This document shows positions 6,677 to 27,828 of a stretch of DNA of 64,000 nt, piece after piece. Made by a program: the position numbers and the translations under genes. Each line of letters opens with the position of its first letter. The first letter of the stretch is position 1. Below the pieces are notes generated by a model. That model was not told the origin of the DNA. It saw nothing but the letters and a program-made list of their open reading frames with translations, and ran no database searches. Source of the DNA: an uncultured Verrucomicrobiae bacterium (lineage in GTDB: Bacteria > Verrucomicrobiota > Verrucomicrobiia > Limisphaerales > Palsa-1400); contig OY969763.1 of NCBI GenBank assembly GCA_963702845.1, positions 3,808,001-3,872,000 of the forward strand, given 5' to 3'.

Positions 6677-7048
6677 TCAGTATTGCGTTTTATAAATGTA
6701 AATGCCTTCAAACGCGGTCTTCTCGACCCAAACACCTTGAGTCGACGGCTTGCGGTCGGCGTCACGATAAATGTGATACCCAACCGAATATCTTCCCTGT
6801 TCATGTGCCAGGAGAATCTTAATATTGTCCAATTCCTTCATAACCGAGATTGGTTTCAGCGCCTTGATCGAAGCTGGCCATTGCGATTTCGGCACATCGC
6901 CAACCGGAACGGCGTCCTCCAGCATCTTCACAGCATCGGAACGCAATTTCGCGGGATCTTTCAATGGCGCCACCGCTTCTTTGTGACAAGCCGACAAGAA
7001 AAATGCACAGAGCAAAACTACGATAGCAAACGGTCCACTCCTCCTCAT
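6677..7048 (-). CDS. Putative lipoprotein
   Basis: [21 protein letters not shown] lipobox (LSAC); stop lies 1 nt before the prepilin-like ATG. Confidence 0.7.
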
Positions 7049-7366
7049 TTTTTTGGTTCTTAAATTATCCACCGGCCCACCTTTCAAGCGTAATGCTGAG
7101 ATGAACCTTCACGTCTGTCAACAATCCAACACCAGCATCGCCTGATGGTTGCTCAGATTCTCCGACGTTAGGCATTCAATTAAATACATGTCCGCCGAAA
7201 TGAAAATCGTACATTAATTTTTCAAAACGGCTCGCCACGAAAACAGCCCCAGACCGAACCCTGCCCGAAAAACTCCGCAATCAACAACCATCACAATTAG
7301 ACTCCCGACCGACAGTTTTCCTTTGAAAAAAGTTTCCGCCGTGTAAACCTCGCCCCTTACGACCTG

Positions 7367-9486
7367 ATGAGCACTCGAATCCACATCCTGTTCACCTTCG
7401 TGCTCCTTGCTGTTCAACTCCAAGCGCAAACGCTCCGCCCGCCGTCCGTCCCGCTCGTCGCATGCGATCCTTATTTCAGCATCTGGTCGCCGGCCGGACA
7501 AATTGACCGATGCCGACACCGTCCACTGGACTGGCAAACCACATCGCCTCACCAGCCTCGTTCGCATCGATGGCAAACCTTTCCGTATTGATGGGCAAAG
7601 AACCATCCGACCGTTTCGGCGTTGCTGCAAACCGGCTGGAAGTCTTGCCTACGCGCACGATTTACACATTCGAAAGCGAAGGCTTGAGCTATGACGCTCA
7701 CGTTCATGACGGCTGCACTGCCAGATGATCTGATGATCTACTCGCGTCCGGTCACTTACGTGACATGGACAGCCCAATCGATCGATAACAAAGAACACAA
7801 GGTCGCTCCATACCTCGATGCGTCCGCCGAAATCACCGGCAACACTGGCAAAGAAATAGTCGCATTGTCGACCAGAGCCAATGCCGATGGCCTTACTGTT
7901 TTAAAGGTCGGCACAAAAGAACAACCGATGCTGGCGAAAAAGGAGACAATATCCGCATCGATTGGGGGCATCTTTACGTTGCCGCCCCGCAGTCGGAAGT
8001 GTAATTTCGCGAATCATGGCGACGACAAGCTCAATACGGTCGCGAAGTTTCGGGCGGCCGCATGCAATTCGAATGCCGACACTGGCTGAAGGCCCCGCCG
8101 ACACCCTCGCTCGCCACCATCGACTTCCCGCCCTTCAAAGTCGGGTGCTAAACCCGTCTCCCGCTGGCTCATGCTCGCCTACGATGACGAATACTCGATC
8201 CAATATTTCAAAAAAATCTCCGCCCCTACTGGCGACGGAATGGCGATGACGCGAACGCACTCCTCCGCAAATCCGCCGCCGATTACGGACTCACTCTAAA
8301 GCGTTGCACGAAATTCGATAACGATTTAATGGCCGCACTCACCAAAGCCGGCGGTGCGCAATATGCCAAAATTTGCGCGCTCGCCTATCGCCAATGTTAC
8401 GCCGCCAACAAAGTTGTCGCCGACGAAAATGGCCAACCGCTCATGTTCCCCAAAGAAAATTTCTCCAACGGCTGCATCGGCACCGTCGACGTTATCTATC
8501 CAATGGCCCCGCAATTCCTTTTCTTCAGCCCCTCGCTCACCAAGGCCATGCTCGTGCCTATCCTCGACTACGCCGCGTCACCGCGCTGGCGTTGGCCCTT
8601 CGCTCCGCACGACCTCGGCACCTACCCGCTCGCCAATGGTCAAGTTTACGGCGGCGGCGAGCGTACTGAAGAAAACCAAATGCCCGTCGAAGAAACGGGC
8701 AACATGCTCATCATGCTCGCCGCGCTCGCCCAAGTCGAAGGCAACGCCGATTTCTGTGGCAAATACTGGCCCATGCTGGACAAATGGGCTGATTATCTGA
8801 AGGCAAAAGGGTTTGATCCCGAAAACCAACTTTGCACTGATGACTTCGCCGGTCACCTCGCGCACAACGTCAACCTGTCCGCCAAAGCCATCTGCGGCCT
8901 CGGCGCGTACGCTCGCCTCTGCGAAATGCGTGGCCAAAAAGAAAAAGCGCGCGACCTCATGCAACTGGCGCACGAATTCGCCGATCGCTGGACCAAAGAG
9001 GCTGACGATGGCGACCACTTCCGCCTCGCTTTCGACAAACCCGGCACGTGGAGTCAAAAATACAACTTGGTCTGGGACAAAATCCTCAACCTCCACCTCT
9101 TCCCAGCCGAGACCTTGCGCAAAGAAATGGACTTTTACAAAACCAAATTAAACACCTACGGCCTCCCGCTCGACATCCGCAAAGATTACACAAAAACCGA
9201 CTGGACCCTCTGGACCGCAACGCTGACGCAAGGCCGTTCCGACTTCGACACCCTAGTCAATCCCGTCTACAAATTCCTGAACGAAAGCCCGAGTCGCGTC
9301 CCATTGACCGACTGGTATAACACGAAGACCGGCAAAATGGTTGGATTCCAGGCCCGCTCCGTCGTCGGCGGCGTCTACCTCCAAATGCTCTACGACCAAC
9401 CCACCTGGAAAAAATGGTCACATCACGATAAAACCAAACTCCACCAATACGCTCCCCTACCCAGCGCACAAAAGATCGCCAATTAG
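7367..9486 (+). pseudogene. GtaA/glutaminase-A-like (DUF5127/DUF4965) six-hairpin glycosidase-like protein, frameshifted in its 5' half
   Basis: Signal peptide and RPPSVPLVACDPYFSIWS start; homologous-looking segments hop frames between about 7495 and 8215. The intact C-terminal part has KENFSNGCIGTVDV, APHDLGTYP, MPVEETGNM, CTDDFAG, WSQKYNLVWD, FQARSVVGG. Confidence 0.8.
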
Positions 9487-10550
9487 TTTTGGACGGAACG
9501 CAAATTTTGCGCGACGAATTTCTCGATCGCATCAGTCGCGAGTTGATGGGCGTATTCGTTTGGATGCGCGTCGAAGCGGTTTACGGTTAATTTCGTGGGC
9601 GCTTCGTTGCTGTAGACGGAGAGCAAATCCAGATGCTGCACGTTCTCAGCTTTCCAAAACTCATCCAACTGTTTGTGGACCGCCCCGTACGGATAGTTTG
9701 GTCCGACCGCATTCACAAATGGGAACGTAACAACCGTCAATTTACCTCCATGCGACTGGATCAGGTCGCGCAATTCGCGCAATAGTTTAGTTTCTTTGTC
9801 CCAAACTTCTCCGCGAAATCCGTCGCCAATAAAGCCGTAATAATTCTTCGTGTACGGATTCCGCATGATCTGCCAGTGCGAATAGAGGAAATTGACGAAA
9901 TAACTGTTTTGGATCAGCCAGCCACTGTGGCGAATGTCCTCTTCAGCACTTCTCACCGAATCCATCCAGTGCGGCATCAAATCGGAAACATCGTTGAGAC
10001 AAAAGACCAGGACTACATTGTCGAACTGATAGTTTTGGGCAACCTCGTATTTGAGGAAATCCAATTCCGAGTCGGTGTCCCAGCCGAGGTCGGCTAGCAT
10101 GTGAATTTCCCAGTCGGGCCGACGAGAACGAATCCGGTTCACGAACCTGTCCTCGATGTTTTTGATGCCCTGTCCGGCGGTAAACGAATCGCCTAAAAAA
10201 CTAACGCGCCGTTTTCCCGGTCCGACCGGCTGGTAATAATTGACATTGTCCCTGCAACCGAGCCCGTTCCTGGTGTTCCAATAGCGTGAAAACCAACGCC
10301 GGCTCACTCGCGAAAAGTTGATGGAATCGGTCGTGTCCTGAAAGAAGCGGAAGTATACTTCTCCTGACAACAAACCCAACGACAGTAAAAAAACCAAGAC
10401 GGCGGAATTCCCGAGAACAAGCGAAGCCCAACTGGTTTTTCTTTTTTTCTTCGACACGCGCTTTTGATTGCGGCGTGTCAGCACGAACAATAGAAACCCC
10501 ATCAATACCGGTGTGGTCGCGAATAAAACGAGCACGGTATTCTCGCCCAT
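9483..10550 (-). CDS. Membrane-anchored SGNH/GDSL-family protein
   Basis: Two N-terminal TM segments; block I GDSFTAG, block II LG, block III CLND, block V DAHPN. Confidence 0.85.
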   Translation of the reverse strand: MGENTVLVLFATTPVLMGFLLFVLTRRNQKRVSKKKRKTSWASLVLGNSAVLVFLLSLGLLSGEVYFRFFQDTTDSINFSRVSRRWFSRYWNTRNGLGCRDNVNYYQPVGPGKRRVSFLGDSFTAGQGIKNIEDRFVNRIRSRRPDWEIHMLADLGWDTDSELDFLKYEVAQNYQFDNVVLVFCLNDVSDLMPHWMDSVRSAEEDIRHSGWLIQNSYFVNFLYSHWQIMRNPYTKNYYGFIGDGFRGEVWDKETKLLRELRDLIQSHGGKLTVVTFPFVNAVGPNYPYGAVHKQLDEFWKAENVQHLDLLSVYSNEAPTKLTVNRFDAHPNEYAHQLATDAIEKFVAQNLRSVQN

Positions 10551-10553
10551 AAA

Positions 10554-10754
10554 TTAAAAGAGCGAGTAAACAAACGGCGCAAACCCAGTTCCGGAAAGAA
10601 ACACCAGCAAACCCAAAATCAGCAGGCAGATCACGACGGGCAACAGCCACCACTTCTTATTCGCGCTTAAAAACCCAAAGAACTCCCTCACGATTCCGTG
10701 CTTGTCGACTTCCTGCGCTGCTTTCTCAAATTCGTTCAGTTCGGGGGCTTTCAT
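10554..10754 (-). CDS. DUF5989/SxtK-like small single-TM protein
   Basis: 66 aa: REFFGFL..NKKWWLLPVV, hydrophobic helix, C-terminal APFVYSLF; packed between the sxtJ-like and SGNH genes. Confidence 0.85.
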   Translation of the reverse strand: MKAPELNEFEKAAQEVDKHGIVREFFGFLSANKKWWLLPVVICLLILGLLVFLSGTGFAPFVYSLF

Positions 10755-10766
10755 ACATTTCAACTT

Positions 10767-11195
10767 TCAATATTGACGGAAATACCGCCGGACATCGGTC
10801 GGCATTTCTTTTGCGATCCAATAAGACGTTGCGTTCGCCGGTTTGAATCGGCGCAACCGGTCCCGGCCGGACATGCGAAATATCAAGGCTACGGGGGTGA
10901 TAATACAATAGAACATCAATGCCAATGCAACCTGAGAAATGACCCATCCGACCGGAAATGCAGCCACCATCCAGACGACAAAAATCCAACGGAAAACGAC
11001 TGGCACCAGCCAATTAAACGCGACACCAACGACTGCCGTAACCCCAAGCCACATCGCCGGCTTCGTATGATGCTGAATCGCAAATTTACAAATCGCCAAT
11101 GCGCCGAAGAAAATCACCCAACCCCACGCAAATTGCCGTAAGGTTTTGGAATCAGGTTTCAGGAGATGACGTGGAAATTCCATAAACGTGATCAA
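10767..11195 (-). CDS. SxtJ-family membrane protein
   Basis: LRQFA TM segments, W..AFPVGWVIS...FYCIITPVALIFR..GRDRL, SYW, terminal YFRQY. TTG start overlaps the upstream TGA; ATG 11183 is an alternative. Confidence 0.82.
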   Translation of the reverse strand: MITFMEFPRHLLKPDSKTLRQFAWGWVIFFGALAICKFAIQHHTKPAMWLGVTAVVGVAFNWLVPVVFRWIFVVWMVAAFPVGWVISQVALALMFYCIITPVALIFRMSGRDRLRRFKPANATSYWIAKEMPTDVRRYFRQY

Positions 11196-13111
11196 TCGAG
11201 TTCAAACTGCGCCATATATTTAGCGCGCTCTTCGACGCTGAGAGAATTGTTAATTTGCGACTTCTGCAAAACGAAATCTTCCAGGACCAGCACGTCAATG
11301 TGGGTCGCCAAAAAACAGCGATACGCCTCTTCCGGCGTGCAAACGATCGGCTCGCCGCGAACGTTGTAGCTGGTGTTCACAAGCACCGGACAACCCGTCC
11401 TCTGTTCAAATGCTTTGAGCAATCGATAGAACCTTCCGTGTCGCTCCTCATCCACCGTCTGCACACGCGCACTGTAATCAACGTGCGTCACCGCCGGAAT
11501 CGTCGAACGCACAAACCCAACGCGCTTGCGCAAATCGGGATCGTTCGTCATCGCCAACGCCTCATCGGGGTTGAGCGCCTTGCGGTGTTTTTCCAAGACT
11601 GGCGCAACATGAAGCATGTATGGATTCTCCTGGCCCAAACGCATGCAAAAATATTCGTGCGCCTTCTCCCGCAAGACCACCGGCGCGAACGGACGAAAGC
11701 TTTCGCGGAATTTGATCTTCAAATTCATGTCCGCCTGCATCTTCGGATTCCGAGGATCGCCGAGAATCGAACGACAACCCAGCGCGCGCGGACCGAATTC
11801 CATGCGACCCTGAAACCATCCGATAATTTTTCCCCGTTCCAACTGCGAGACGATCGCTTCAATCAACTCCGACTCGCGTTTAAACTGCTCGTGAGGCGCG
11901 TTAACTTTTACAAGAAAATCGCCAATCGCTTCGTTTGAATATCGCGGCCCCAGTAAACTACCCTTTTGCTTATCTATCCCGGTGCCTCGTCGCGGTTTGT
12001 TCAGCAGCTGATGCCAGACAAACAGCGCCGCGCCCAAAGCGCCGCCGGCATCACCAGCCGCCGGCTGTATCCAAATATTCTCAAATGGGCCTTCGCGCGA
12101 AAGTCGTCCGTTCGCCACGCAGTTCAACGCGACGCCTCCCGCGAGAACCAGATTCTTTTCGCCAGTGCGACGATGAATCTCTTCGCCCATCCGCAGCATC
12201 GCTTCTTCGGCGACGCATTGAATGCTCGCGGCCAGGTCCATGTGTCGCTGTTCGAGATTGGCTTCTGGCGGGCGCGGCGGTCCACCAAAAAGGCGATCGA
12301 ACCGCTCGTTCGTCATCGTCAGTCCCTGGCAGTAATTGAAATACTCCATGTTCATCCAAAGACTGCCGTCCGGTTTCAAATCAATCAGGTGCTCGAAAAT
12401 CAGATCGCGATAAATCGGTTTCCCGTATGGCGCCAACCCCATCAACTTGTATTCGCCACTGTTGACTTTGAACCCGCAGTAATAAGTAAACGCGGAATAC
12501 AACAACCCAAGCGAATGGGGAAATTCAAATTGCGCATCGAGCCGAATCCGGTTTCCTTCACCGACACCGAAGGTGCACGAGCACCACTCCCCTACCCCAT
12601 CGACCGTTAGGATTGCCGCCTTTTCAAACGGGCTGGGAAAAAACGCGCTTGCCGCATGACTTTCGTGGTGCTCGACAAAGACAAGCTTTGCTCGTTCGGC
12701 GGCCGGAAGATTGCTTCGAATCGTCCGCTTCAAAAACAATTTTTCCTTCAACCAAACCGGAAGCGCTTCGCGGAAACTTCGAAATCCCTTGGGCGCAAAA
12801 CCTAAATAGGTTTCCAGGAGACGATCGAATTTCAACAGCGGCTTTTCGTAATAGGCGATGTAGTCGAGATCCTTGTCAGAGATTCGATTTCCATGGTTCG
12901 CGCTTTCCTCGAGACAATACCGCGCCGCAAGCGCCGGAAATCCAGAATCATGTTTCTTTCGGCTGAACCGTTCTTCCTGCGCAGCCGCAACAATGTCTCC
13001 ATCCACCACCAGCGCCGCTGCGCTGTCGTGGTAGAAAGCCGAAATGCCAAGGATTGCGGTCGATGACGTGCCTGTCATCGGACCAGCAGATACTGGTGAC
13101 GAATTGTTCAC
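11192..13111 (-). CDS. O-carbamoyltransferase, NodU/CmcH (SxtI-like) family
   Basis: ILGISAFYHDSAAAL, EERFSRKKHD, HHESHAASAF, DGVGE, GEYKLMGLAPYG, AGGVALNC, GDAGGALGA, GRMEFGPRALG, KFRESFRPFAP, NTSYNVRGEPIV. Confidence 0.95.
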   Translation of the reverse strand: MNNSSPVSAGPMTGTSSTAILGISAFYHDSAAALVVDGDIVAAAQEERFSRKKHDSGFPALAARYCLEESANHGNRISDKDLDYIAYYEKPLLKFDRLLETYLGFAPKGFRSFREALPVWLKEKLFLKRTIRSNLPAAERAKLVFVEHHESHAASAFFPSPFEKAAILTVDGVGEWCSCTFGVGEGNRIRLDAQFEFPHSLGLLYSAFTYYCGFKVNSGEYKLMGLAPYGKPIYRDLIFEHLIDLKPDGSLWMNMEYFNYCQGLTMTNERFDRLFGGPPRPPEANLEQRHMDLAASIQCVAEEAMLRMGEEIHRRTGEKNLVLAGGVALNCVANGRLSREGPFENIWIQPAAGDAGGALGAALFVWHQLLNKPRRGTGIDKQKGSLLGPRYSNEAIGDFLVKVNAPHEQFKRESELIEAIVSQLERGKIIGWFQGRMEFGPRALGCRSILGDPRNPKMQADMNLKIKFRESFRPFAPVVLREKAHEYFCMRLGQENPYMLHVAPVLEKHRKALNPDEALAMTNDPDLRKRVGFVRSTIPAVTHVDYSARVQTVDEERHGRFYRLLKAFEQRTGCPVLVNTSYNVRGEPIVCTPEEAYRCFLATHIDVLVLEDFVLQKSQINNSLSVEERAKYMAQFELD

Positions 13112-13237: not shown

Positions 13238-14404
13238 ATGCTTATGATGACTCGTTCACGTCGCCGACAAATACTCATAATCTCTTGGTGTGCGGTTACC
13301 GCATTAGTGGCAGCGATGACAAGTCATTTGCAGCTCGCTAACGCTACGGCGCCCACAACTGACGAAATCATCGTCTGCGGCGAACGATTCCACACCGGCG
13401 TGCCCATTGTCCTCTGGACCGATCAAGGCGGTTACAATTTTCACTACACCAAAGCTCCCGTCGGCACACCCGCGGAGCGCATACCCAGTCGCGTCCGCCA
13501 GGCTCCGTTGACCGACGAGCAAATCGCCGAGGTTCGCCGCGATGGTTGGACGCCTGAATTGCTGCGCCAAAACGTGGACCAGTTCGTCATCCACTACTCG
13601 GTAGATCCGACCAGTCGAGACACTTTCAACACGCTCGTTAAACGCCATCTGTCCGTCCAATTCATGCTCGATCTCGACGGCACCCTCTATCAAACAATGG
13701 ATGCACAGGAAGAAGCGCCGCACGCCACCAAAGCCAACGGCAGATCAGTCGGTATCGAAATCGCTAATCTTGGCGCTCGCATCGGTAGCACTGCGGACCT
13801 GGACGAGTGGTATAAAAAAGATGCCGCTGGTCAAACCGTGATCAAGGTTCCGACCCAACTGGTCGACAAAGACGGTCACGCGACCCCATACACCAGCGGA
13901 ATCCGCACCAAAGATTTTCATGGCCACCCCGCGCGCTCGCAAATCATCAAAGGCATCGTCCAAGGCAAAGAATATCAGCAATACGATCTCACCCCACAGC
14001 AATACAACTCACTCATCCACCTCACCGCAGCGTTGTGCACCGCCTTCCCAAAAATAACCTGTGAATATCCACGACAAAAACCGGCGTTCGGTCCACCCAC
14101 GCCGCAAATAATCAAAACAGGGCCCGCCGCACATCCAAATGCCCTCGCCACGTTGAACGAACCAGGCGTCTTAATCCCGCACGTACTCACCGCGGATCAA
14201 TACGAAGTTTATCAAGGCATTCTCGGCCACTACCACGTCCAACTCGACAAACAAGACCCCGGCCCGGCGTTCCAATGGGATTACGTCATCAACAGCGCGC
14301 GAAAACTCCTGACATCGCAAGCCCTCGCCGCCAACGTCGCGGCCCGTGGCAAACCGGCGCGTTTTATCCCCAGCGTTCCGGCGCCAAAAACTACCGGGAA
14401 GTAA
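13238..14404 (+). CDS. N-acetylmuramoyl-L-alanine amidase (Amidase_2-like), exported
   Basis: FVIHYS, LSVQFMLDLDGTLYQ, HA..ANGRSVGIEIAN, ILGHYHV...KQDPGPAFQW; N-terminal signal or anchor. Confidence 0.82.
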   Translation: MLMMTRSRRRQILIISWCAVTALVAAMTSHLQLANATAPTTDEIIVCGERFHTGVPIVLWTDQGGYNFHYTKAPVGTPAERIPSRVRQAPLTDEQIAEVRRDGWTPELLRQNVDQFVIHYSVDPTSRDTFNTLVKRHLSVQFMLDLDGTLYQTMDAQEEAPHATKANGRSVGIEIANLGARIGSTADLDEWYKKDAAGQTVIKVPTQLVDKDGHATPYTSGIRTKDFHGHPARSQIIKGIVQGKEYQQYDLTPQQYNSLIHLTAALCTAFPKITCEYPRQKPAFGPPTPQIIKTGPAAHPNALATLNEPGVLIPHVLTADQYEVYQGILGHYHVQLDKQDPGPAFQWDYVINSARKLLTSQALAANVAARGKPARFIPSVPAPKTTGK

Positions 14405-22311: not shown

Positions 22312-22321
22312 AATGAAAGAT

Positions 22322-22436
22322 CTGGCGCCAACCTACTCTCGCAGAACCTATAGAACTACTACCATCGGCAAGACTGTGTTTGACGGCCGTGTTCGGGATG
22401 GGAACGGGTCGGACCACAGCTTTATGGGCACCAAAA
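22322..22436 (-). rRNA. rrf: 5S rRNA
   Basis: Reverse complement contains CCCATCCCGAACAC, GCCGATGGTAGT, GAGAGTAGG and closing TGGTGCC/GGCGCCA stem. Confidence 0.93.
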
Positions 22437-22726
22437 AATCGTTTGGTCAGTAGCAATCGATTTTGCAATTGCTACGCGCGGGCTCTGCCGCGTTGACCGA
22501 GATTTAAATACTTTTGGCCAGTGCTTTCAATTCATCAGTTAACCAGCGGAGTAACGAGAAAACAGTCTCATCACCCACCCTGCTGAACCGATCGCACGGA
22601 CCGAGATTTTAAAGATCATACCTGGCAAAGCTCAGGAAAACTTCTCTGAAAACTATACGTAGACTTGGGAGCATATTACAACTCGCGAGTTTAAATTACG
22701 CTTTTTTCCTTTGTGGGAAAAAAAAG

Positions 22727-25597
<2,871 letters not shown>

Positions 25598-25768
25598 ACA
25601 AAGTTAGACCTCGTTCTCCTCATTGCTGAAGAAAACAAGATTACTCAGCGAATTGTAATTATTTATGCCCTTTATTATCTACGTATAGTTGTCAAAGAAC
25701 TTTCCCGGCTTTAATCGCTCGAGGGTTTTAAACCCCGAACAATCTCTTCCAGGCAAAATTTTATCAAG

Positions 25769-25845
25769 TGGTGGGCGTGACTGGATTCGAACCAGTGACC
25801 CTGCGCTTATCAAGCGCATGCTCTAACCAACTGAGCTACACGCCC
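25769..25845 (-). tRNA. tRNA-Ile (GAT)
   Basis: GGGCGTGTAGCTCAGTTGGTTAGAGCATGCGCTTGATAAGCGC...GGTTCGAATCC...CACGCCCACCA. Confidence 0.97.
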
Positions 25846-25855
25846 ATTAAAGTGT

Positions 25856-25931
25856 TGGTGGAGCTGAGGAGAGTCGAACTCCTGACCTATAGCTTGCAAA
25901 GCTACCGCTCTACCAACTGAGCTACAGCCCC
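25856..25931 (-). tRNA. tRNA-Ala (TGC)
   Basis: GGGGCTGTAGCTCAGTTGGTAGAGCGGTAGCTTTGCAAGCTA...GTTCGACTC...AGCTCCACCA. Confidence 0.97.
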
Positions 25932-26246
25932 AACACTTACGATTACTTTTGAGATTCCGATTTGAACCCGCGCCTTGCGACGCGTCAATCGTAAATCGTC
26001 AAACGCAAATCGTAAATTTACGAGTTCGATCTCTTCCACTTGTTAAAGAACAAAAGTCCGCTCCGCAATGTTTAACGTTGCTGATCGAACCGAACGCATC
26101 CATTTGCGTTCCGGCTATTGAAAGCCCATTGAAATCTGAATTGTGCGAATAGATTGAGCCAAAATCTGTGATTTCAAATTTAACTCTGAAATCTCAGACC
26201 GACCTAGGAACGATGGTTAGAAACCGAAGTTTCACCCATCTCCATG

Positions 26247-27828
<1,582 letters not shown>

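Follow-up and report, generated by a model that had tools for sequence, protein, structure and literature searches.

Why should the gene for a soluble carbamoyltransferase be followed by genes for two small membrane proteins, one of which ends in a motif known from acyl shuttles, and by a gene for a membrane-anchored SGNH-fold enzyme? The question is raised by a locus in the genome of an uncultured Verrucomicrobiae bacterium (assembly GCA_963702845.1, contig OY969763.1), of which we analyzed a stretch of 64,000 nucleotides, positions 3,808,001 to 3,872,000 of the forward strand, here called the window. Four co-oriented open reading frames (ORFs) on the minus strand, at 9483-13111 of the window, encode a carbamoyltransferase, an SxtJ protein, a peptide of the DUF5989 (SxtK) family and an SGNH protein. 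From sequence conservation and from analogy with known shuttles, we consider it moderately probable that this conserved module hands a carbamoyl group from the cytoplasm to a tyrosine of the peptide, onward to the serine of the SGNH enzyme, and finally to an acceptor outside the inner membrane.

The genes are tightly packed, with a 4-nt overlap followed by gaps of 12 and 3 nt. The first (11192-13111) encodes a class III O-carbamoyltransferase of the NodU/TobZ/GdmN type from an SxtI-like clade (PF02543, E 8e-97; PF16861, E 4e-72), and the second (10767-11195) a small membrane protein of the SxtJ family (PF19588, E 1e-7, above the cut-off). The third encodes a single-pass membrane microprotein of 66 amino acids (PF19451, E 3e-18), at 10554-10754 if read from the ATG at 10754 and at 10554-10763 at the full extent of the ORF. 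The fourth (9483-10550) encodes the membrane-anchored SGNH-fold enzyme, which is in an SxtL-like position, matches PF13472 (Lipase_GDSL_2) below the cut-off (E 4e-6) and was assigned its fold by structure search. The C-terminal hexapeptide of the microprotein, FVYSLF (10557-10574, with the Tyr63 codon at 10566-10568), conforms to the acyl-shuttle motif FXYXXF. No MBOAT was found among the window ORFs scanned. The initial annotation of this DNA had described the same four families with the same orientation and spacing, the peptide with its single transmembrane segment and FVYSLF ending, and the lack of an MBOAT; the ORFs, the Pfam matches, the structure search for the SGNH protein and the peptide sequence bear out this description.

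FXYXXF is the defined terminal motif of DltX and MBOAT proteins, and PatA has been shown to carry acetyl-tyrosine (PMC12148441). The window peptide ends in PFVYSLF, and in an alignment of 100 family members only Trp36, Pro39, Pro60 and Tyr63 are invariant. The tyrosine stands four residues from the end at all 60 phylum loci, which were collected with the Pfam model, and in all 40 relatives, including those with the tails WALYPFM and PFMYSVK, in which one or both Phe residues are lost and Tyr is kept. Phe was never seen at the Tyr position. Another 80 loci came from a motif scan and were chosen partly by their tail, which makes them circular for this purpose, the Pfam-model sets being less so. 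Since Tyr is conserved, the flanking Phe residues are not, and Phe never replaces Tyr, the hydroxyl group appears to be important. As judged by conservation, the tyrosine thus appears not to be dispensable, a point on which the initial annotation had made its relay depend.

These tails bear on one alternative, in which the peptide would be a non-covalent adaptor: its aromatic tail would dock on and position a transferring SGNH enzyme, and carbamoyl-AMP or a breakdown product would reach the serine via the SxtJ-peptide assembly with no tyrosine intermediate. The tail is indeed short and wholly uncharged, no membrane catalyst is evident, and soluble transferase-SGNH pairs without a peptide, described below, suggest that direct hand-over is possible. 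However, an adaptor does not explain why Tyr rather than its Phe neighbors is conserved with no replacement by Phe, and two systems are proven to load this motif covalently. We therefore regard the adaptor as an improbable explanation.

The peptide is predicted to cross the membrane once. At least two Lys or Arg residues precede the hydrophobic helix of 20 residues in 100 of 100 peptides, and no charge follows it in 99 of them; according to the positive-inside rule, this would place the N-terminus inside and the tail outside. In a comparison of the peptide profile with 1,086 Tyr-bearing ORF ends of the source genome, the tail of its single MBOAT ranked second (E 0.0057). The family is large, with 5,819 clusters at 50% identity, and is present in 68 of the 301 genomes of a phylum sample and in 31 of 41 relatives; the nearest relative among named contigs is from a Verrucomicrobiales genome. 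In the source genome, DUF5989 has a single match, and neither the Pfam model nor a peptide-profile scan of ORF ends found a second peptide. Searches of the peptides with tblastn gave no phage match and only three plasmid records, and were insensitive, having missed peptides later seen in annotated regions. A search for longer DUF5989 proteins yielded apparent SxtJ-peptide and transferase-peptide fusions, which were set aside because the 22 that were read of the 120 listed had junk linkers typical of frameshift errors.

On the donor side, the carbamoyltransferase has no transmembrane segment and starts at the GTG at 13111 or the ATG at 13078. It contains both a Kae1-like and a YrdC-like domain (PF02543 and PF16861 above the cut-off), and its profile matches to NovN, GdmN and TobZ have E values of 1e-104 or better. 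The protein carries His28, His148, His152, Asp171, Asp354 and the motif KFRESFRPF, and these catalytic and ligand residues and the motif are invariant or nearly so in 100 clade members. By their spacing, the His and Asp residues are likely to correspond to the base and the iron ligands of GdmN (PMC9633730). The family is known to use carbamoyl phosphate and ATP for the formation of carbamoyl-AMP, and the residues for it are present here. The window enzyme thus has in common with NodU/NolO, TobZ, GdmN and NovN the two domains, the base, the iron ligands and the nucleotide motif; it differs in that its clade has a conserved C-terminal end, F/Y-x-L-D, and travels with SxtJ and the peptide. It missed the cut-off of the NodU equivalog NF041651 (127 bits versus 1000). 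A second, unrelated carbamoyltransferase of the other clade lies elsewhere in the source genome (G000:C1:1885141-1894009), in a small cluster with ORFs labeled peptidase-, acetyltransferase- and radical-SAM-like from reading their translations.

The SxtJ protein gave an AlphaFold model with a predicted local distance difference test score (pLDDT) of 92.7 and three helices (13-38, 41-60 and 62-105). Among 100 aligned sequences no residue is invariant, no invariant His in particular, and only Trp123 is nearly so; the C-terminal tail is basic. The fold search was uninformative, with helical bundles as best matches (Z 7.0). In 11 genomes where the peptide gene is elsewhere, the Pfam model missed SxtJ in 10, and our own profile then recovered it beside the transferase in 10 of the 11. 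Its lack of invariant residues, its three helices, its basic tail and its constant place beside the transferase suggest that SxtJ anchors the transferase and the peptide at the membrane or acts as their scaffold, and make a role as catalyst or pore less likely. The initial annotation had allowed for SxtJ as a conduit, which the three helices, without an invariant residue or a fold match, so far do not support.

The SGNH protein gave an AlphaFold model with a pLDDT of 86, and the structure search returned an SGNH fold with CgnD as the best match (Z 18.6, root-mean-square deviation 4.4, 233 aligned residues). It has Ser122, Asn186 and Asp327-x-His329, preceded by two N-terminal hydrophobic helices. 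There is a charge bias before the last hydrophobic helix, the positive-inside rule fits an outward domain in 31 of 42 SGNH proteins, and the catalytic domain is accordingly predicted to be outside. Across 44 partner SGNH proteins, Gly120, Ser122 and His329 are invariant at a mean identity of only 14%, with D-x-H found in 25. The C-terminal half of the family profile aligns with AlgJ (E 1e-14) and AlgX (E 4e-12), and only CgnD is matched by the profile over its full length. An Acyltransferase-3 domain (PF01757) was found in none of the four proteins and in one among 357 neighbors scanned. An N-terminal hydrophobic helix is present in 73 of 77 bacterial partner SGNH matches, as compared to 0 of 16 phage matches, which come from loci without a peptide; SGNH proteins are thus anchored where the peptide is present and soluble where it is absent. 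Two further SGNH genes of the source genome were observed, one for the multi-helix protein known from the satellite pairs described below, here with no peptide beside it (G000:C1:765397-767043, E 1e-74 to 1e-102) and one for an orphan SGNH-TPR protein (C1:4541202-4543361).

The divergence of the SGNH proteins also bears on the possibility that the peptide is what the module ultimately modifies, as a membrane peptide or precursor that stays carbamoylated and loses its tail to cleavage by the SGNH enzyme. The precedent is CgnD itself, the closest solved SGNH structure, which cleaves a ribosomal peptide in a carbamoyltransferase cluster. Against this, the peptide hardly varies, in contrast to SGNH partners with 14% identity, and the saxitoxin and suomilide clusters, which contain the same module, make unrelated carbamoylated products. 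We consider this explanation highly improbable, the least probable of those discussed here.

Gene neighborhoods were examined at 80 loci from a genome collection, at 60 phylum loci and at 40 loci of relatives; the latter two sets come from 69 and 45 matches, of which nine and five, respectively, were left out, mostly at contig ends. One of the 80 motif-scan loci had no peptide call, giving 179 loci with a peptide call; two of the loci, L225 and L228, have identical gene lists and may be one sequence. All SGNH counts rest on seed-only profiles, since an iterated profile drifted into phage proteins. The transferase or SxtJ is found in the core at 155 of the 179 loci, and an SGNH gene lies within 1.5 kb at 84. 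The near flanks contained 89 SGNH matches in 0.49 Mb and the far flanks 11 in 1.61 Mb, a 26-fold difference in density. From the eight SGNH profile hits of the source genome, an SGNH gene would be expected by chance at approximately 0.9% of loci. The SGNH neighbors occur in nine arrangements of side, strand and size. Chance is thereby excluded as the cause of the gene association, and the enrichment beside the triad, which the initial annotation had named beforehand as a test of its proposal, was observed.

The same annotation had expected MBOAT genes to be absent beside DUF5989, and an MBOAT was found at only 2 of the 179 loci, in a search with one query protein that may miss distant MBOATs. 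This low count speaks against the idea that an MBOAT or other membrane acyltransferase loads the peptide in trans, with the transferase giving a soluble donor, so that the system would not be free of MBOAT. The only MBOAT match in the source genome is located approximately 3.4 Mb from the module and has a tail of its own, NPFIYFKF, and its own SGNH-like gene downstream. The idea draws on the mere presence of this MBOAT, on a D-alanyl-type acyltransferase in the suomilide cluster (PMC10157211), and on locus L094, where an MBOAT without the C-terminal motif (10166-11374) directly follows the peptide, as DltB is found with DltX, beside the carbamoyltransferase. We consider loading in trans very unlikely.

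Linkage of the peptide to each side separately was seen where the module is broken up. Of 24 peptide loci without transferase and SxtJ, 11 have an SGNH neighbor, and in 11 of 11 genomes with a solitary peptide the transferase is encoded elsewhere. In all 20 peptide-bearing genomes without an adjacent SGNH gene, full-length members of the SGNH family were found elsewhere (best E 2e-18 to 4e-68), and there are up to 21 profile matches per peptide-bearing genome. In 20 peptide-less genomes, the matches were only partial, occurred in eight and were never better than 1.3e-15; these controls were the first 20 non-matching genomes listed and all belong to one class, so that ancestry is confounded with the contrast.

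The most telling arrangement is a satellite pair. In seven genomes of the window's family, a multi-helix SGNH protein of 500-550 amino acids is encoded immediately after a second peptide, whose tail is, for example, PFMYSVK (L218, L220, L222, L226, L247, L248 and L249, at approximately 6990-8800 of each locus). The core locus is elsewhere, and the fetched flanks contain neither transferase nor SxtJ. The seven pairs probably represent one event, and peptide-SGNH pairs without a transferase were also found at L046, L085, L162 and L223. Given such pairs, the donor side and the SGNH side are each linked to the peptide independently, which is what one would expect of a shuttle.

These observations suggest the following relay. 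The transferase would make carbamoyl-AMP from carbamoyl phosphate and ATP, while SxtJ may hold it at the membrane and bind the peptide. In the step that is weakest, the uncharged 12-residue tail would dip back into the membrane, where the catalytic His of the transferase, in place of the MBOAT His, would carbamoylate Tyr63; with a base of its own, the transferase would need no MBOAT His. The tail might conceivably re-enter along SxtJ, as it lacks charges and nine residues, if extended, roughly span the bilayer core. Aryl carbamates, which are base-labile, can donate their carbamoyl group to a serine, and by analogy with the Dlt and Pat systems the tail could then, on the outer face of the membrane, pass this group to Ser122, the serine of the SGNH enzyme. 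The latter may transfer it to a hydroxyl group, most probably on a sugar of an envelope glycan, a glycolipid or an exported metabolite. Several divergent SGNH enzymes, each with an acceptor of its own choice, would draw on a single conserved donor core. In its most general form, the proposal would be that of a third class of bacterial tyrosine shuttles without MBOAT or Acyltransferase-3 proteins, in which an SxtJ-docked iron carbamoyltransferase loads the tyrosine across the bilayer and the core feeds up to about 20 divergent, outward-facing SGNH carbamoyltransferases, some with their own peptide; this extension we put forward tentatively, as somewhat less probable than not.

The window system shares with DltB-DltX-DltD a separate single-pass microprotein, the C-terminal FXYXXF motif and a membrane-anchored SGNH partner (PMC12148441). 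It differs in having no MBOAT and no carrier protein, a soluble iron-type carbamoyltransferase as donor enzyme, carbamoyl as the presumed group and an uncharged tail. With PatA-PatB and AlgI-AlgJ/AlgX it shares the terminal motif and, in part, the profile match to AlgJ/AlgX, whereas its motif resides on a free peptide and not on an MBOAT (PMC12148441). Unlike PatB, AlgJ and AlgX, the window SGNH domain is in canonical order and the block II Gly is mostly kept. CgnD, from the crocagin cluster with the carbamoyltransferase CgnI, differs in being soluble and in its assignment as a slow leader protease, and the supplement rows examined for the cluster name no SxtJ or SxtK homolog (PMC10070186).

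The gene set itself is known. In saxitoxin clusters, sxtL is listed after sxtK and encodes a GDSL lipase (PMC2684587, PMC2679770), and two DUF5989 family members carry the UniRef name SxtK. Because sxtL is of the GDSL/SGNH type and DUF5989 proteins have been named SxtK, the quartet in the window is a module of the sxtI-J-K-L type. The suomilide cluster has the transferase bslR followed by sxtJ, sxtK and two SGNH genes, and its product bears a carbamoylated hexose (PMC10157211). The saxitoxin genes sxtI-J-K-L and the suomilide genes bslR-sxtJ-sxtK-sxtL thus represent the same four families in the same listed order as in the window, with orthology of the proteins judged by family names. The window differs from both in that the module stands alone in a non-cyanobacterial genome, and no toxin, non-ribosomal peptide synthetase or saxitoxin core scaffold genes were found among the window ORFs scanned, which include purine, transport, glycosidase, rRNA and cell-division genes. 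The statement in the initial annotation that no other saxitoxin genes are present therefore holds for the core genes in the window; it overlooked that the SGNH gene itself has a counterpart in sxtL.

The saxitoxin literature provides the most serious alternative. A proposal in print, to be confirmed, has SxtI transferring the carbamoyl group with SxtJ and SxtK, and SxtL removing it (PMC2679770); SxtJ and SxtK are described as helpers of unknown function and SxtL as a proposed decarbamoylase (PMC12300590, 10.64898/2026.06.11.731795). Applied to the window, a transferase tethered by SxtJ and the peptide would act directly on a cytoplasmic or lipid-linked substrate, as NodU, TobZ and GdmN act directly on their acceptors (PMC9633730), and the SGNH enzyme would edit the product after export, as a decarbamoylase or another hydrolase. 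In Lyngbya wollei, sxtI is truncated, sxtL is absent and no carbamoylated toxins are made; the authors' view is that it lost an unneeded hydrolase (PMC3037375), and the pattern fits equally the joint loss of one machine.

Several observations weigh against the relay, and some of them favor this direct transfer. The block II Gly (Gly156 in the window protein) is kept in 34 of 44 partner proteins and replaced by Ser in four, and this residue is associated with hydrolases rather than transferases (PMC12148441). The Ser/Asn of PatB and OatA in its place is not found in the window SGNH. Because carbamoyl-serine enzymes hydrolyze slowly in any case, the Gly weighs less here than it would for acetyl groups. 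Generic esterases match the SGNH family profile as well as AlgJ does, and CgnD is hydrolytic, cleaving a leader peptide slowly in vitro (PMC10070186). An adjacent SGNH gene is missing at 95 of 179 loci, about half, and the compared genomes are kin, so that the contrasts overstate their independence. With respect to loading, Tyr63 is only about nine residues past the helix, and SxtJ has no invariant residue or evident pore to account for membrane crossing. The peptide profile matched a single MBOAT C-terminus with 37% probability over 20 columns only. Moreover, no polysaccharide cluster adjoins the module in the window, which leaves the surface glycan proposed as acceptor in the initial annotation without backing at this locus, and among 357 same-strand neighbors counted by hand, clear polysaccharide-biosynthesis genes turned up for no more than about 9 of 80 loci.

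Loci without a peptide add to these points. A Ralstonia megaplasmid has a module-clade transferase, a remnant SxtJ and a soluble SGNH protein, 12 of 41 phage loci (L002-L042, IMG/VR) pair the transferase with soluble SGNH-like ORFs, and a Streptomyces locus has the transferase and DUF6071. The phage SGNH matches are weak, with many near-identical copies and one of six tested confirmed by Pfam, and the phage carbamoyltransferase is short (about 475 amino acids), with no SxtJ. Since the Ralstonia, phage and crocagin cases lack a peptide, transferase and SGNH proteins can pair without a shuttle. Nevertheless, direct transfer leaves unexplained the invariant outward tyrosine in a known shuttle motif, the peptide-SGNH pairs away from any transferase, and the up to 21 SGNH matches per genome that track one donor core, and the role of SxtL in print is itself a proposal needing confirmation. 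We therefore judge direct transfer unlikely, and of the alternatives the one to be taken most seriously.

The relay itself was not found in print, in a search that covered few subscription journals. The literature covered contained nothing on DUF5989, PF19451, PF19588 or the name 'SxtJ family', nothing that joins SxtK to DltX or to the shuttle motif, and nothing on carbamoylation with SGNH proteins. The gene set and the shuttle principle are thus each known, and their union was not found in print; the initial annotation, which knew of no description of the mechanism, agrees with this for the relay, and the genes are already published as sxtI-J-K-L.

Transferases on plasmids fall into two groups, the module clade with at least 52% identity and others with at most 42%. 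All four genes are present in clade members on plasmids of Sinorhizobium meliloti, Methylosinus and Leisingera, and three planctomycete plasmids have the triad beside exopolysaccharide genes with no SGNH gene nearby. From the lower-identity group, 13 loci were selected for spread. SxtJ, the peptide and any SGNH-profile match are missing from 12 of them, although one of the 12 does carry DUF6071, which matches GDSL faintly; at the remaining locus, a divergent peptide and half of SxtJ are present and no SGNH gene lies within 4 kb. This last is a Sphingobium plasmid (L204:2848-6944) with a more distant carbamoyltransferase (42%) and a peptide ending in APFVYSIF; it also encodes a cupredoxin, a methyltransferase and a fusion of a ferritin-like domain with the C-terminal half of SxtJ. 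In the Ralstonia locus (L203:6889-17426), the SxtJ remnant has 68 amino acids and matches only the C-terminal half of SxtJ; an iron-containing redox enzyme, a second divergent carbamoyltransferase and an ATP-grasp protein are also present, and the locus looks like a metabolite cluster. On pSymB of S. meliloti (L200:1825-17827), the module is located approximately 6 kb from an operon with glycosyltransferase, GalE, GH26 and DUF995 genes; its transferase lies at NC_003078.1 484586-486409, and the gene order is that of strain ABS7. In print, the tag SM_b20472, which may be this transferase gene, is mentioned once in passing and labeled an ornithine carbamoyltransferase.

Other features of the window surround the module. 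A glutaminase A-like gene at 7691-9486 (DUF5127 at 7691-8089, GtaA hairpin domain to 9486), apparently split over several frames, converges on it with a 4-nt overlap. An N-acetylmuramoyl-L-alanine amidase gene (Amidase_2, 13238-14404) is divergent, 126 bp upstream, and a complete rRNA operon with two spacer tRNAs is located at 22320-27827 on the minus strand.

The analysis provides a testable function for two long-unassigned families, SxtJ and SxtK/DUF5989, which comprise thousands of clusters in many phyla, and for the large orphan SGNH family that tracks them. The complete module on pSymB makes the harmless model bacterium S. meliloti a tractable host for such tests. If the relay is true, tyrosine shuttles would not be limited to acyl-CoA and carrier donors but could also draw on carbamoyl-adenylate, with no membrane enzyme involved; a soluble enzyme would then have to act on a residue in the periplasm, and the way in which it does so becomes a new question. 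If the wider proposal of a third shuttle class also holds, the SxtK- and SxtL-type proteins of natural-product clusters would be recast as the actual transfer machinery, and O-carbamoylation of the envelope would be a widespread, unrecognized modification.

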